Source: a virus
Length of the DNA: 64,000 bases
Strand: one strand, 5' to 3'
IMG/VR virus record: IMGVR_UViG_3300048014_000353
Span: 1-64,000 of that record
Shown here: piece after piece, positions 28,200-33,896 of the stretch
Layout: each line of letters opens with the position of its first letter
How positions within the stretch are numbered: the first letter of the stretch is position 1
Program-made: the position numbers and the translations under genes
The notes under the pieces: generated by a model
Database searches by the model: none
What the model was told of the DNA's origin: nothing
What the model saw: only the letters and a program-made list of their open reading frames with translations

Positions 28200-29291
28200 C
28201 TAGCCGCCGAACTCGCGGAAGCTGTCCTCGACCAGGTCGACGCAGAGCTCGTCGAGCTTCGCGCGATCGGGCGCGTCGGGAAGCTTGGACGCCTTGGCGA
28301 TCGCGTCGAGCTCCGCGTTCTCGCGGTCGCTCCACTCGATGAGCTGCTCGATGGTCCAGGCGCCCCGTCGGATCGCGAGCAACTCCTCGGCGTCCGGTCG
28401 TCGCACGAGGACCTTGCCGGTCGTGAGGATCTCCCGGCACATCTTCAGTAGCCGAACGAGATGCATGCCGTGCTTGAGATCGTAGCCGAACTTGGCCTCG
28501 AGCTCCGCGCGGGCCGCATTTCGGTTCACCTTCCACGCCTGGTACTGTTCCCACTCTTTGTGCCGTGCGTGGTACTGGCGCTCCCGGTCGAGAAGCTCGA
28601 TGAAGTTGGACTCGAACCCGACCGCGCGCGCCGCGCCGATCCAGAGGTCACCGGTCGTCACGTGCATCTCGGCGATGGAGTCGGCCATCTTGTCCGCGAT
28701 GAGGAGGCGGCTCGCGGGGTCAAGGTCTCCGACGAAGTCGAGGTTCCAGTCCTTCAGCTTTTTCTCGACCGCGGATCGGGCGGCGGCGATCTGGTCCTGC
28801 GGGATGACCGTCCGCTCGGGTAGACCGAACTCTGCACGCGTCGGCGGCGCCGTCATCGGGTCGCGCAGCCAGCGCATGTGCCCTCGGATTCGGCGAAGCT
28901 GCCCGGTCGCGTACCCCGCGTAGGTGTGCTTGGCCTTCTTCGAGAGGAAAAGATCGCGCGCCGCACGCAGACGCTCACCGAGCGGCGTCATCACGAGCAC
29001 GTCGCTGTCCTCGACGAAGAGGATCTCAAGTACGTTCGGGTTGCAGTCGGCCGCGAGCTGCATGAACTTTCGCAGGCCGAAGATGGTCACGTCCGGCGAC
29101 TTCATCTCGGCCTGCTCAAAGGCGTGCGCGAAGCCGTGGAAGTAGCTGCTCGGCGGGATGGCAACGCCGCGGAAGTCTTCGTCGCTGGTCGCGATGTTGG
29201 TTCCATAAGCATGCGATCCGTGCCGTGCGAAGAACACCGTGCGGCGCGTGAGCCATGGCAGGTTTCCCGTGTACGGAATGCAGTACGTCAT
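28200..29291 (-). CDS. Nucleotidyltransferase, Pol-beta superfamily (RlaP/Nuc-transf-like)
   Basis: HGSHAYGTNIATSDEDFRGV...CNPNVLEILF...GYDLKHGMHLVRLL. Confidence 0.85.
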   Translation of the reverse strand: MTYCIPYTGNLPWLTRRTVFFARHGSHAYGTNIATSDEDFRGVAIPPSSYFHGFAHAFEQAEMKSPDVTIFGLRKFMQLAADCNPNVLEILFVEDSDVLVMTPLGERLRAARDLFLSKKAKHTYAGYATGQLRRIRGHMRWLRDPMTAPPTRAEFGLPERTVIPQDQIAAARSAVEKKLKDWNLDFVGDLDPASRLLIADKMADSIAEMHVTTGDLWIGAARAVGFESNFIELLDRERQYHARHKEWEQYQAWKVNRNAARAELEAKFGYDLKHGMHLVRLLKMCREILTTGKVLVRRPDAEELLAIRRGAWTIEQLIEWSDRENAELDAIAKASKLPDAPDRAKLDELCVDLVEDSFREFGG

Positions 29292-29559
29292 GCGGCTTTC
29301 CGTTCCTTGTCCTTCACGACCGCGACCATACGGCACTCCGCGCACGACTTGAAGCCGACCGTGACCGGGTCCCCGCAGCGGCAAACGCCGACGCGCTTCT
29401 TGTTCCAGTAGGAGCGTCGGTTGGATGCGCGTCGCGACTTGCGACACGGAGCACAGAGACACGCGTCTCCGCGCGCGATCGGGCGCGCGCCGCACTCGCA
29501 CATCCCCGCGGCCCTCATCCGAGCGCGGAACGACTTGACGTATTCGTAGGGCATCGCGC

Positions 29560-29851
29560 TCACGGTCGCCTCCGGAGAAATTCGCGAATCTCGTCGATGG
29601 ACACCGGCGCGTAGGCCCACTGATCGACCCCCACGTTCAGCATCCCGTTCTGGCTCGCCGGCTCGATGCGGTACCTCCAGAGTTCGTGGACGTGTCCGTG
29701 GAGAAGCGCGCGCCCGGGAGCCATCGGCGGCCGGTACTCGGGGTAGCGCGGCTCCGCCGAGTGGTCGCCCACCGCAGGAAAGTGGCAGAGGCGAAACTCC
29801 TCGTAGTCCACCCAGTTGCCGTGGATGGTCGCGAAGCCGAGCCGGTGGTAG
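29560..29851 (-). pseudogene. Metallophosphoesterase, C-terminal half (split by the IS1 element)
   Basis: LCHFP, LLHGHVH, LNVGVDQWAYAPVS. Confidence 0.85.
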
Positions 29852-29913
29852 GGCACTGGTCGGTTTTGAAATGACGCGGCTCGTGCCAACGGCGGCGGGG
29901 CACTCTCTCGCCC

Positions 29914-31385: not shown

Positions 31386-32012
31386 ATGCAGACCGTTCGC
31401 AGCGATGGGCGCCTGGAATACCTCAAGGAGCCGGACGTTCGTGCGAGGCTGGACAGGCATCACGACGCGCTTGCGAGGCTTGTCCGCGAGGCAAACGACC
31501 TCTGGGACCTCCACCTTGGAAAGCACTTCTCGCAGCCACTATCGCGGACGCGGAAGCAGTGCGTGTCGAACGCCTACTACTGCGGCGCCAAGGCCGTGTT
31601 TGGCGAGACGTCGGGCATCCGACTCGTGGAGGAGTCGGAGCGGCTCATGCTGGTAATCGACGACTCGTTCGTTGTGCGGTTCAAGTTCCTCAACCGGGGC
31701 AAGCGCACGATCAACTACCCCACGTCGGCGTCGCTCAAGATGGACGCTCAGTTGCCGATCCGTATCGCCGGGATCGAGCGCCTGCCTCGCGTTGTTCTTG
31801 GCTACACGCTCGGCGGGGTACCGCTGGCGCTCGACGGCACCTTCGTTCTGTTCGCCGTCGACAACAAGCCGATGTGGCACTACGGCATCGACGGCAAGGA
31901 CGCCGAGTCGCTTGTTCTCCCGTTCGAGGACGAAGACATGCCGGCCGAACACGAGTTTCGGATGGTGGGCGACGCGGATGAGTCCGACGAGTCTGCGAAG
32001 AAGGGCGGGTAA
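31386..32012 (+). CDS. Uncharacterised protein, putative toxin/effector partner of the HTH-M78 gene
   Basis: VVRFKFL...INYPT...Q...LPRVVLGYTL pattern resembles ORFs I recall upstream of XRE-ImmA genes; acidic tail; 14 nt from the next gene. Confidence 0.55.
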   Translation: MQTVRSDGRLEYLKEPDVRARLDRHHDALARLVREANDLWDLHLGKHFSQPLSRTRKQCVSNAYYCGAKAVFGETSGIRLVEESERLMLVIDDSFVVRFKFLNRGKRTINYPTSASLKMDAQLPIRIAGIERLPRVVLGYTLGGVPLALDGTFVLFAVDNKPMWHYGIDGKDAESLVLPFEDEDMPAEHEFRMVGDADESDESAKKGG

Positions 32013-32026
32013 CCAGGAGGCGGAAG

Positions 32027-33091
32027 ATGCCGAACGTCAACAAAGACATGCTCGTGCTCGCGCGCGAGTCGAGGCGCCTTACGCAGGAAAATCTGGCAAA
32101 GCTGGCAGGAGTTGGGCAGGGAACGATTTCAAAGGCCGAGGGCGGCTCTGGCCCAAGCGACGATCTCGTTGCTGCGTACGCGAAGCACCTCCGGTACCCG
32201 GTCGAGTTCTTCTACGAGACCCCGCCATCGACGCGGCTGCCGGTCGCCTTCTACCGGAAGAAGAGGTCGGTGGACGTGAAGCACCTTCGCGCCATCGACG
32301 CGCAAATGCGCATCTTGCGCATGCACTTGGACAAGCTCCTTCGATCGGTGGAGGCGCCTCCGATGCGGGTCCCTCTGGTGAACCTTCTCCGCGACTATCG
32401 CGGCTCGGCGAGCGACCTCGCTCAGGAGTTGCGGCTGCGGTGGCACGTGAAAAAGGGGCCTATCGAGAACATGACAAAGCTCGCCGAATCGCTCGGCGTC
32501 TTCGTCATTCGTTGGCACTTCGACACGCCGGATGTCGATGCGCTCAGCATGCACGAGGATGGCTTGCCTCCCGTCATCGTGATCGATGCAGCGATGTCGG
32601 GCGACCGCATGCGTTTCACGATCGCGCATGAACTCGCGCATATCATCATGCACCACCATCTCGCGCTCCCAGGGGCCGACTACGAAGCAGAGGCAGACGA
32701 GTTTGCGGCGGAGCTGCTGATGCCGAGGGACGAGATAAGGCCATTCCTGCGCGGACTGACCGTCGAAAAGCTCGCGCACCTGAAGGCTCACTGGCGCACC
32801 TCGATGGCGTCACTTCTACGTCGGGCCGGCGACCTGGAGGCGATCTCCGAGAGCCAGAGCGCAAAGCTCTGGTCGGTCATGTCCCACCTTGGGTTCAAGC
32901 GAAGTGAGCCCGTCGACGTTCCGCAGGAAGAGCCGACGCTCGCGAGGAACCTAGTCGCCTTCCACATGAAGCGGCTCGGCTACAGCGCGAAGGAAATGAG
33001 CTTGATGCTTCCTTGGAGCGAAGAGGAATTCGCTCGCACATATCTGGACGGCGCCACTCGCCGCGCAGGACTCCGAGTCGTGAAGTGGTGA
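32027..33091 (+). CDS. XRE HTH plus ImmA/IrrE (M78) zinc metallopeptidase
   Basis: LARESRRLTQENLAKLAGVGQGTISKAE; RFTIAHELAHI (intact HExxH); EAEADEFAAELLMP. Confidence 0.92.
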   Translation: MPNVNKDMLVLARESRRLTQENLAKLAGVGQGTISKAEGGSGPSDDLVAAYAKHLRYPVEFFYETPPSTRLPVAFYRKKRSVDVKHLRAIDAQMRILRMHLDKLLRSVEAPPMRVPLVNLLRDYRGSASDLAQELRLRWHVKKGPIENMTKLAESLGVFVIRWHFDTPDVDALSMHEDGLPPVIVIDAAMSGDRMRFTIAHELAHIIMHHHLALPGADYEAEADEFAAELLMPRDEIRPFLRGLTVEKLAHLKAHWRTSMASLLRRAGDLEAISESQSAKLWSVMSHLGFKRSEPVDVPQEEPTLARNLVAFHMKRLGYSAKEMSLMLPWSEEEFARTYLDGATRRAGLRVVKW

Positions 33092-33095
33092 AAAC

Positions 33096-33129
33096 AACGC
33101 CCGAGCGAGGTGACTCGCTCGGGCGTTTT
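33096..33129 (+). terminator. Perfect 14-bp hairpin plus TTTT directly 5' of the tRNA-like gene
   Basis: AACGCCCGAGCGAG-GTGA-CTCGCTCGGGCGTT-TT. Confidence 0.65.
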
Positions 33130-33224
33130 GGAAGCTTCGCCGTTCACTGGCGTGATTGAGGGGCTCTACATCCCGAGGCCCGCGGCTGGTACCCGCGTGG
33201 GGTTCGATTCCCGAAGCTTCCGCC
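33130..33224 (+). tRNA. tRNA-Sec-like allo-tRNA (9/3 cloverleaf) with CUA (amber) anticodon
   Basis: Manual fold: 9-bp acceptor GGAAGCTTC/GAAGCTTCC, G discriminator plus CC; D-arm CGTTCAC-TGGC-GTGATTG; anticodon arm GGGG-CTCTACA-TCCC; V-arm CGCGG-CTGGTAC-CCGCG; T-arm GGG-TTCGATT-CCC. Confidence 0.75.
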
Positions 33225-33231
33225 TCCGATT

Positions 33232-33540
33232 CTAACTCCGCTTCTTCGCTTCGTCCGCCAGGATCGAAGCGCGCACGGCCATGACCGGCCCGTCCACGGG
33301 CGGCACGCCGAGGATGGCCTTGAAGCGCCGCCGCGTGCCCTCGACGAGAACGCTCCAAGCATACGCACGCGTCGCGCCGCTCGGATGCCCAGCGAGCGCG
33401 AAGACCTTCACGGCGCCCTGCCAGACGATCTCGCCCTTGAAGCGCTCGTCCACCTCGACGGTCTCGACGTAGGTCGCTGGTACCCCGTGGAGATGCTCGA
33501 CGGCCTCGCGCAGTTCGTCGATCGAAACATCGTCGTCCAT
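33232..33540 (-). CDS. Conserved hypothetical passenger protein
   Basis: VWQGAVKVFALAGHPSGATRAYAWS...GVPPVDGPVMAVRASI; I recall this family from IS cargo. Confidence 0.65.
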   Translation of the reverse strand: MDDDVSIDELREAVEHLHGVPATYVETVEVDERFKGEIVWQGAVKVFALAGHPSGATRAYAWSVLVEGTRRRFKAILGVPPVDGPVMAVRASILADEAKKRS

Positions 33541-33607
33541 GCGGGCGAGTCTACGCGAGCGCGGACGATGCGCAGCGCGTCACGAAAGTTCAAAACCGAC
33601 CAGTGCC

Positions 33608-33896
33608 GGTGGTAGCGGTCGGCGGCGTTCCTCCATTTCCGGTGCTTTGGAAAACAAGCGTCGTGATTGCCGGCGATGAGGTGGTGGCGGCCGTTGAGCC
33701 GCGGGAGGTAGTCGCGGACGAGGCGGTCGTCGAGGCTGAAGTCTCCGAGGTGGAACGTCTCGTCCTCGGGGCTCACCCGATCGTTGAACCGCGCGACCAG
33801 CGCCTCGTTCATCTCGGCCACGTCGGCAAACGGGCGGCTCGCGTACCGGATGACGGCCGCGTGGCCGTAGTGCTGGTCGGAGGTGAAGAAGATCAA
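33608..33896 (-). pseudogene. Metallophosphoesterase, N-terminal half
   Basis: FFTSDQHYGH, FHLGDFS, LIAGNHD; joins in frame (DRYH-RLGFAT) to the 29560-29851 half when the IS is removed. Confidence 0.9.

Follow-up and report, generated by a model that had tools for sequence, protein, structure and literature searches.

The question raised by this locus is why a gene shaped like an irregular transfer RNA (tRNA) should stand directly behind two protein-coding genes in the cargo of a transposon. The DNA analyzed, called the window below, consists of 64,000 nucleotides (positions 1 to 64,000 of the IMG/VR virus record IMGVR_UViG_3300048014_000353). It contains a transposon provisionally assigned to the IS1 family of insertion sequences (IS), which carries two open reading frames (ORFs), namely ORF-A, encoding a candidate effector, and ORF-B, encoding a predicted helix-turn-helix (HTH) peptidase of the RmrA type, followed by a hairpin and by the gene of an RNA resembling the (9/3) allo-tRNAs, with the amber anticodon CUA. 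All four parts are contiguous on the + strand. The sequence-only reading of the window had described the two genes, a perfect hairpin and the tRNA-like gene as contiguous and co-oriented, the RNA starting 38 nt past the peptidase stop, and had placed them on a transposon: our coordinates agree with the former description, and the inverted repeats, 8-bp duplication, transposase and interrupted gene that were found bear out the latter. It had also proposed that the RNA is a functional part of the module. The answer reached here is that the RNA accompanies the gene pair repeatedly but is dispensable, and is thus an optional rather than an obligatory third component.

Structure and conservation of the RNA

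The acceptor stem of the predicted RNA consists of 9 bp (G1-C9 with G84-C92) and the T stem of 3 bp (G71-G73 with C81-C83) closed by the canonical T loop UUCGAUU, giving an acceptor branch of 12 bp divided 9/3. A UGGC tetraloop closes the D stem, in which there are 6-7 pairs and one U.U mismatch, the variable arm has 5 bp, and the 7-nt anticodon loop, CU-CUA-CA, is carried on a short stem. At the 3' end, the discriminator G73 is followed by CC, the final A not being encoded. ARAGORN did not call this RNA and reported no tRNA in the window, and the folding energy of the RNA is unremarkable (z -1.0). The Rfam model of tRNA-Sec (RF01852) gave a score of 33.3 bits, the gathering score being 47, and a tRNA-Sec identity was rejected in view of this sub-threshold score, the 9/3 instead of 8/5 branch and the CUA instead of UCA anticodon. 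The exact 26-nt 3' half of the RNA had no match in viral contigs.

Homologs of the RNA are present in four sister transposons. In the alignment of the five RNAs, which was fitted to the covariance model, 91% of the cells were paired, vs. 40-56% in slid controls, and 18 of the 28 pairs were altered on both sides. Pairing was maintained in 96% of the cells of the acceptor stem, 100% of those of the T stem and of the V stem, where 3 pairs have changed on both sides, and 74% of those of the D stem. A covariance model built from the five sequences gave them 72-99 bits and gave canonical tRNA-Leu, tRNA-Ser, tRNA-Sec and tRNA-Val 25-32 bits. The fold is taken to be real because the homologs in the sister transposons keep it with compensatory changes, and this comparison of sequences provides solid support for a real, selected molecule having the shape of a (9/3) allo-tRNA.

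The ORF-A/RmrA pair

The ORF-B product carries the Pfam domains HTH_3 and Peptidase_M78, including the HExxH motif, and matches the PADLOC RmrA model over its full length (5e-60). In Rosmer-type systems, RmrA serves as the antitoxin, and its partner toxins are diverse (Ernits et al. PNAS 2023, PMC10440598). When 401 genomes of each of the phyla Myxococcota, Acidobacteriota and Pseudomonadota were searched with the profile of the ORF-A family, nine further loci were obtained, eight of them with RmrA directly downstream. With the window included, ten distinct loci were examined, and in nine an RmrA gene follows the ORF-A-family gene; the remaining one (G794) is a partial match. As far as gene content and order can tell, it is solid that ORF-A and RmrA make up a conserved two-gene module of the Rosmer type.

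No Pfam, PADLOC or NCBIfam family was matched by ORF-A, nor was any PADLOC RmrT model. At E<=1e-3, the library contains 219 representatives of its family, almost all of them close to 200 amino acids (aa) in length; no relatives were obtained from pattern scans of viral, metagenome and genome contigs, or from tblastn searches against plasmids and phages. The AlphaFold2 (AF2) model, with a predicted local distance difference test (pLDDT) score of 86, gave middling best matches to the folds of NaeI (Z 7.2), SwaI (5.6) and EcoRV (5.3), and weak template modelling (TM) scores of 0.37-0.39 against the PDDEXK families in the Atlas. Residue K100 is nearly invariant, but conservation of D92/D93 and E82-85, the acidic residues which an active PD-(D/E)xK nuclease would be expected to have, is limited to close relatives. 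The family is unnamed, and the model suggests a restriction-endonuclease-like fold.

Association of the RNA with the gene pair

The sequence-only reading had suggested scanning the DNA downstream of ORF-A homologs, and had regarded a lack of the RNA in homologous pairs, together with a deletion having no phenotype, as evidence against its proposal. The outcome of the scan was mixed: a tRNA-like gene was found after three of the eight further ORF-A/RmrA pairs and not after the other five (G203, G934, G329, G036, and G966), so that such contrary evidence was obtained in part.

The three positive pairs are those of all three Acidobacteriota genomes having an ORF-A-family pair, in which an irregular long-arm tRNA follows RmrA on the same strand at a distance of 7-25 nt: an 85-nt 8/4 allo-tRNA(UAU) 7 nt past the RmrA stop in G709, and 87-88-nt long-arm tRNAs with the anticodon UGC, 10 and 25 nt past it, in G492 and G479. 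These trios recur in soil bacteria despite very divergent proteins, the ORF-A identities being as low as about 25%, and the transposase of the window element is absent within about 6 kb of them. In a control set of 30 RmrA loci from the 401-genome acidobacterial sample, a tRNA-like gene was found in all three of those with an ORF-A-family partner and in none of the other 27 (Fisher p 2.5e-4, a value that ignores relatedness). As regards the form of such genes, those at L127:9596-9682 and L128:6669-6756, which lie directly after RmrA in two acidobacterial genomes, are 7/5 long-variable-arm tRNA-like genes with A73 and the alanine anticodon (UGC), lacking G3:U70; they combine type-II (Leu/Ser-like) bodies with a mismatched anticodon.

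The reverse search, starting from the RNA, yielded 80 metagenome loci matching the UAU allo-tRNA pattern, 65 of which ARAGORN called as an 82-95-nt tRNA(tat). RmrA ends 4-11 nt upstream of the UAU allo-tRNA in four contigs (L168, L205, L177, and L234), and ORF-A is present upstream in L168 and L205, the two that reach far enough. Among 64 ORFs lying upstream of UAU allo-tRNAs, most belonged to no family; the commonest recognizable type was Peptidase_M78 with HTH (4), followed by PIN (2) and HicA (1).

Of the five pairs lacking a tRNA-like gene, that of G203 belongs to an ORF-A-RmrA-transposase unit forming a 3.0-kb repeat in three near-identical copies (L131 7499-10508, L164, and L165); that of G934 (L129 6060-8592) shows the same order in a compact, co-oriented unit. 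For one of the G203 copies, a tRNA-SeC was called 2 kb upstream; the call was discarded, as the gene is a true selC (8/5, UCA) located outside the repeat.

In the DNA run X17, ORF-B is present at about 99% identity with another gene upstream (break at 31991), and the contig shows a second break 19 nt into the RNA (window 33148). The divergence may correspond to another IS end or to a rearranged element. Within X17, 30 loose letters hold CGACCAGTG, a 9-nt match to the right end of the transposon (…AACCGACCAGTGCC).

The RNA in sister transposons

The covariance model of the RNA was run on 100 loci encoding relatives of the transposase. The same 9/3 RNA was found, in one copy per genome, in the four closest elements (L002, L003, L004, and L007), all from metagenome-assembled genomes (MAGs) of Myxococcota, with transposase identities of 70-84%. 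L002, L003, and L004 have the same inverted ends as the window element and each has its own perfect 8-bp duplication, as does the window element, and the three are therefore independent insertions. In L007, the end-repeat was not matched, the contig ending about 500 bp past the transposase gene. With the transposase taken as +, the common backbone reads: end, ORF102(+), RNA(-), hairpin, cargo(-), transposase(+), small ORF(-), end.

The cargo beside the RNA differs from one element to another. In L003, it consists of an unrelated 212-aa ORF with an RmrA showing 29% identity, and in L002, L004, and L007 of single unrelated ORFs of 202, 280, and 265 aa, respectively. Since the RNA has been kept in the sister transposons after the exchange of cargo, it can be retained without ORF-A/RmrA. 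In all four sisters, a strong GC-rich hairpin of different sequence lies 2-10 nt 5' of the RNA; a U tract follows the hairpin in only two of the five elements, which is compatible with read-through. L002 and L004 share the anticodon loop CUUUACA (UUA), and L003 and L007 share CCUUACA; in the window, the loop reads CUCUACA (CUA). A loop of the form YUA-CA is conserved in all five 9/3 RNAs, as it is in about 14 tRNA-like RNAs that are shorter and also IS-linked.

The proposal that the RNA is part of the module is thus supported in part, by the acidobacterial distribution and the metagenome contigs, and opposed by the five pairs without the RNA, by its presence behind unrelated cargo and by the other neighbors that most UAU allo-tRNA genes have. 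It is because of the five pairs, the unrelated cargo and the break of X17 within the RNA that the RNA is regarded here as dispensable.

The shorter RNAs were observed near more distant relatives of the transposase (54-57% identity), in 14 of the 100 loci (35-103 bits). They consist of a conserved tRNA-like element of ~72 nt located about 50 nt upstream of the transposase start and co-oriented with it, and are carried by Desulfobaccales, Nitrospirota, Acidobacteria and viral contigs (L013-L019, L021, L023, L082, and L097, e.g., L018:4876-4950; also L092, L093, and L047). Its features are an acceptor of 7 bp, a T arm of 5 bp carrying UUCGAUU and a loop that reads CCUUACAA or CCCUACA; a D arm is not clearly recognizable. 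It lies inside inverted-repeat-bounded elements in L018 (2520-5828) and L021 (2035-5826). In the latter, a related IS, the cargo comprises ORF102, a KilA-N protein and a toxin-antitoxin pair of the Gp49/HigB-like and XRE-HTH types. It appears that elements of this IS family often carry toxin-antitoxin modules.

Organization of the locus

The features of the transposon are listed in Table 1. The gaps are 14 nt between ORF-A and ORF-B, 4 nt between the ORF-B stop and the hairpin, and 38 nt between this stop and the RNA. The hairpin reads AACGCCCGAGCGAG-GTGA-CTCGCTCGGGCGTT and is followed by TT, the last base directly preceding the RNA. No sigma-70-like site was detected in a simple scan for promoters and terminators, which also missed the + strand hairpin, as only 4 U follow it.

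Table 1. Coordinates of the transposon and its cargo in the window.
Feature	Position	Strand	Remarks
Left 8-bp target-site duplication GGTGGTAG	29844..29851	.	Direct repeat
Left terminal inverted repeat (GGCACTGGTCGGTTTTGAA...)	29852..29883	+	32 nt, 81% complementary to right end
Small backbone ORF, 107 aa	29914..30237	+	Weak HTH/HigA-like match; conserved in sister elements
DDE transposase, IS1-like, 281 aa	30418..31263	-	Pfam DDE_Tnp_IS1 8.6e-07; NCBIfam IS1 1.6e-17
ORF-A, 208 aa, candidate effector (RmrT-like partner)	31386..32012	+	
ORF-B, 354 aa, RmrA-type XRE-HTH + M78 (ImmA/IrrE) zinc peptidase	32027..33091	+	
Perfect 14-bp GC-rich hairpin, then U residues	33096..33129	+	-29.7 kcal/mol
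(9/3) allo-tRNA-like gene, 95 nt, CUA (amber) anticodon	33130..33224	+	
ORF102, 102 aa, conserved ~100-aa backbone protein of the IS lineage	33232..33540	-	Convergent with the RNA
Right terminal inverted repeat	33576..33607	-	
Right target-site duplication GGTGGTAG	33608..33615	.	Direct repeat

Between its inverted repeats, the transposon measures 3756 bp, and it interrupts a Metallophos (calcineurin-like phosphoesterase) gene. The source record, a virus contig from IMG/VR, is 138.5 kb long, and its DNA is present in moss metagenomes. The assignment of the transposase to the IS1 family is provisional because the NCBIfam IS1 match (64 bits) is below the 100-bit cut-off and the Pfam match is only partial. 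In genome contigs, 509 relatives of the transposase were found, the closest of which (64-84% identity) occur in Myxococcota MAGs. The explanation favored below, held tentatively as a whole, includes the idea that the transposon may have been inserted recently into the phosphoesterase gene of a Myxococcota-type phage.

The ORF102 product, about 30 related loci of which were found by tblastn, is highly conserved and travels with the IS family; its invariant residues in alignment A10 are H18, E32, W40, H52-P53, and YAWS at 60-63. The AF2 model (pLDDT 92) predicts a helix, a four-stranded sheet and a helix, and neither an informative sequence match nor an informative PDB fold match was obtained. 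In the window, ORF102 has a UAG stop at a distance of 8 nt from the RNA 3' end. To the left of the transposon, a 433-aa ORF (28200-29501, - strand) encodes an RlaP nucleotidyltransferase domain (RNA repair pathway DNA polymerase beta family); it is one of the only two long ORFs of the window ending in UAG.

Suppression and recoding

Two uses of UAG were considered and rejected. Programmed read-through of element genes by a suppressor was rejected since their stops are not consistently UAG/UAA; in the cargo ORFs of L002 and L004, the GC content at third codon positions (GC3) is flat after the UAG stops. None of the genes of the element requires suppression or is extended by coding sequence past its stop. 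Recoding of UAG in the phage was rejected since UAG is the stop of only 2 of 30 long ORFs, neither of them having a coding extension. Among the roles which the sequence-only reading had listed (a decoy, a replacement tRNA, a sensor or a suppressor), that of a replacement tRNA is unlikely for a CUA anticodon.

Comparison with known systems

The statement made in the sequence-only reading that no system of this composition has been described was too strong, as the occurrence of allo-tRNAs near toxin-antitoxin systems and transposable elements had already been noted (Mukai et al. NAR 2017, PMC5389517). As in the (9/3) and (8/4) allo-tRNAs described there, the window RNA combines a 12-bp branch, split 9/3, a long D stem with a tetraloop, a long variable arm and G73, and it shares with them the association with soil bacteria, toxin-antitoxin neighbors and a transposable element. 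The window RNA differs from the 9/3 molecules of that paper, which by its description have Arg, Leu or ochre anticodons, in having a natural CUA (amber) anticodon; from the neighborhoods described there, in being internal to a defined IS1-like lineage and in having a specific recurring partner, the ORF-A family with RmrA; and from the phyla which that paper lists, in that its lineage is that of Myxococcota or their phage. A natural amber anticodon on a 9/3 scaffold, a defined transposon lineage and specific recurrent protein partners are therefore what is new here. In searches of the literature, only the study by Mukai et al. and a review of it were found on allo-tRNAs together with transposons, and nothing relevant was found on tRNA-like RNAs in IS1 elements.

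The gene pair resembles the anti-phage toxin-antitoxin system RosmerTA (Millman et al. 2022 preprint, 10.1101/2022.05.11.491447; Ernits et al. PNAS 2023, PMC10440598) in that a variable toxin gene lies upstream of an antitoxin gene encoding an HTH and an ImmA/IrrE-type peptidase; the toxin-first order is common in RosmerTA, which, as here, occurs on phages and mobile elements. Unlike the toxins of that system, ORF-A, a candidate toxin, lacks a PADLOC RmrT match, and no RNA component of Rosmer is described in the passages on Rosmer and ImmA that were consulted. As in the ImmR/ImmA pair of ICEBs1, a mobile element encodes both an M78 peptidase and an HTH repressor function; unlike that pair, the two domains are fused into one protein, the partner has a predicted endonuclease fold, and the element is a DDE transposon. 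By analogy with the role of ImmR/ImmA for ICEBs1, the HTH-peptidase pair might regulate or stabilize the transposon, and control of transposition by the pair is conceivable because in G203 and G934 it lies directly upstream of the transposase gene and is co-oriented with it. With the Type III toxin-antitoxin systems (ToxIN), the locus shares a structured RNA next to a candidate toxin gene, with a hairpin between them. In ToxIN, RNA repeats lie upstream of the toxin gene and are processed by the toxin, whereas here a single tRNA-shaped gene lies downstream and a protein antitoxin is present.

Possible roles of the RNA

The explanation which we tentatively favor, and regard as possible rather than probable, is that a Rosmer-type pair, a hairpin and an amber (9/3) allo-tRNA form the cargo of an IS1-like transposon, in which the RNA would be a co-transcribed, mis-decoding and optional third element. 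The RNA would be transcribed by read-through from an autorepressed operon, in the window through the hairpin; read-through is proposed because the distance of 7-25 nt after the RmrA stop leaves no room for a promoter in the acidobacterial loci. RNase P would free the 5' end of the RNA, leaving a messenger RNA (mRNA) ending in the hairpin, and the RNA would be matured with CCA and probably charged by seryl-tRNA synthetase (SerRS), since it has G73 and a long variable arm. The dose of RNA would track the derepression of the operon. As a mis-decoding tRNA, it would read UAG as serine here, and its relatives would read AUA or GCA codons; mis-decoding would add translational stress to the action of the effector, and the RNA would not be a dedicated antitoxin of ORF-A. 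The conserved anticodon loop, the intact cloverleaf and the identity elements of the Ser type agree with what Mukai et al. observed in experiments, where allo-tRNAs were processed in Escherichia coli, charged with Ser or Ala and active in decoding, and induced missense allo-tRNAs arrested growth (PMC5389517).

Several observations weigh against the mis-decoding role. Position 37 of the loop is C, where tRNAs normally have a purine, and the anticodon stem has only 4 pairs with G.A/A.G mismatches at its flanks. L003 and L007, with the T loop UUGGACU and an extended anticodon arm, and L004, with 2 acceptor mismatches, look degraded for translation. Six allo-tRNA(UAU) species were inactive as suppressors in E. 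coli, according to the same authors (PMC5389517). The contigs from RNA libraries (two runs) cover only positions 31972-32140, that is, the ORF-A/ORF-B junction. The existence of five pairs with no tRNA-like gene also counts against it, and the split of 3/3 vs. 0/27 among the acidobacterial RmrA loci points to an ORF-A-specific partner more readily than to a generic add-on. The 3/3 may also be due to shared descent and not to independent events.

It is this split that is best explained by the main rival, which we consider rather unlikely, namely that the RNA is the dedicated partner of ORF-A in a truly three-part system, a decoy, RNA antitoxin or cofactor that would be bound or cut, RmrA being only the sensor or repressor. 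A specific partner would account for the restriction of tRNA-like genes to the three acidobacterial loci with ORF-A, for the presence of ORF-A beside the UAU allo-tRNA wherever the contig reached that far, and for the tight spacing, and the predicted nuclease-like fold of ORF-A would suit such a role; yet five ORF-A/RmrA pairs, including that of the three-copy and evidently active IS, do without the RNA, the same RNA occurs behind ORF-A-unrelated cargo in the four sister elements, and the catalytic acidic residues are not conserved across the ORF-A family. The association of one family with three architectures and anticodons (9/3 CUA, 8/4 UAU, and 7/5 UGC) would also be odd for a specific decoy.

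The sister elements themselves are best explained if the RNA serves for transposon or operon housekeeping, which we consider unlikely: it would not decode, and would be a tRNA-shaped RNase P/RNase Z processing signal that sets and stabilizes the 3' end of the cargo mRNA, with the hairpin left on it, or an insulator of transposase expression, kept whatever the cargo. The presence of the RNA inside all five closely related transposons despite their different cargo, with a hairpin directly 5' of it in each, the ~72-nt tRNA-like element that distant relatives have 50 nt before the start of the transposase gene, and the relaxed translation features of L003, L004, and L007 are in line with a processing or insulating element. 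A processing signal would not, however, require conservation of the YUA-CA loop and would be expected with any RmrA partner, whereas it was found with none of 27; in addition, no transposase lies within about 6 kb of the acidobacterial trios, and the ORF-A-RmrA-transposase IS copies work without the RNA.

It is very unlikely that the RNA is a hitchhiker or decaying relic, a selfish or neutral passenger on mobile DNA whose adjacency has no functional meaning. In favor of this reading, RmrA lies upstream in only 4 of 68 UAU allo-tRNA loci, most neighbors being unrelated, pseudogene-like allo-tRNAs overlapping transposon genes have been described by Mukai et al. (PMC5389517), and the RNA is interrupted after 19 nt in the X17 contig. 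Against it, all five helices have been kept by compensatory changes, the RNA is repeatedly found close behind RmrA on the same strand even where the proteins have diverged strongly, and the 3/3 vs. 0/27 distribution argues against chance.

Beyond the favored mis-decoding role at this locus, a wider claim can be put forward, to which we give a low probability: allo-tRNAs may be functional RNA components of mobile toxin-antitoxin or defense operons and of the IS1-like lineage, as RNA effectors that read stop or rare codons and are switched on with the operon, or as obligate partners of the endonuclease-fold family, the wider transposase family using a tRNA-shaped RNA 50 nt upstream.

Significance

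Synthetic biology has made wide use of allo-tRNAs since 2017. To our knowledge, no natural function has been attributed to them; a loose link with toxin-antitoxin systems and transposons was noted and never resolved. The present locus provides a concrete case, in which a defined transposon lineage is always accompanied by the RNA and the gene pair is repeatedly followed, 7-25 nt behind, by an irregular tRNA, and natural controls are available in the loci lacking one part or the other. If the RNA is an effector or a partner of the toxin, an RNA layer would be added to Rosmer-type defense. The persistence of mis-decoding tRNAs in soil bacteria would also be explained, and if the RNA is a functional component, this would be the first biological role assigned to allo-tRNAs and would define a new class of transposon-encoded RNA.

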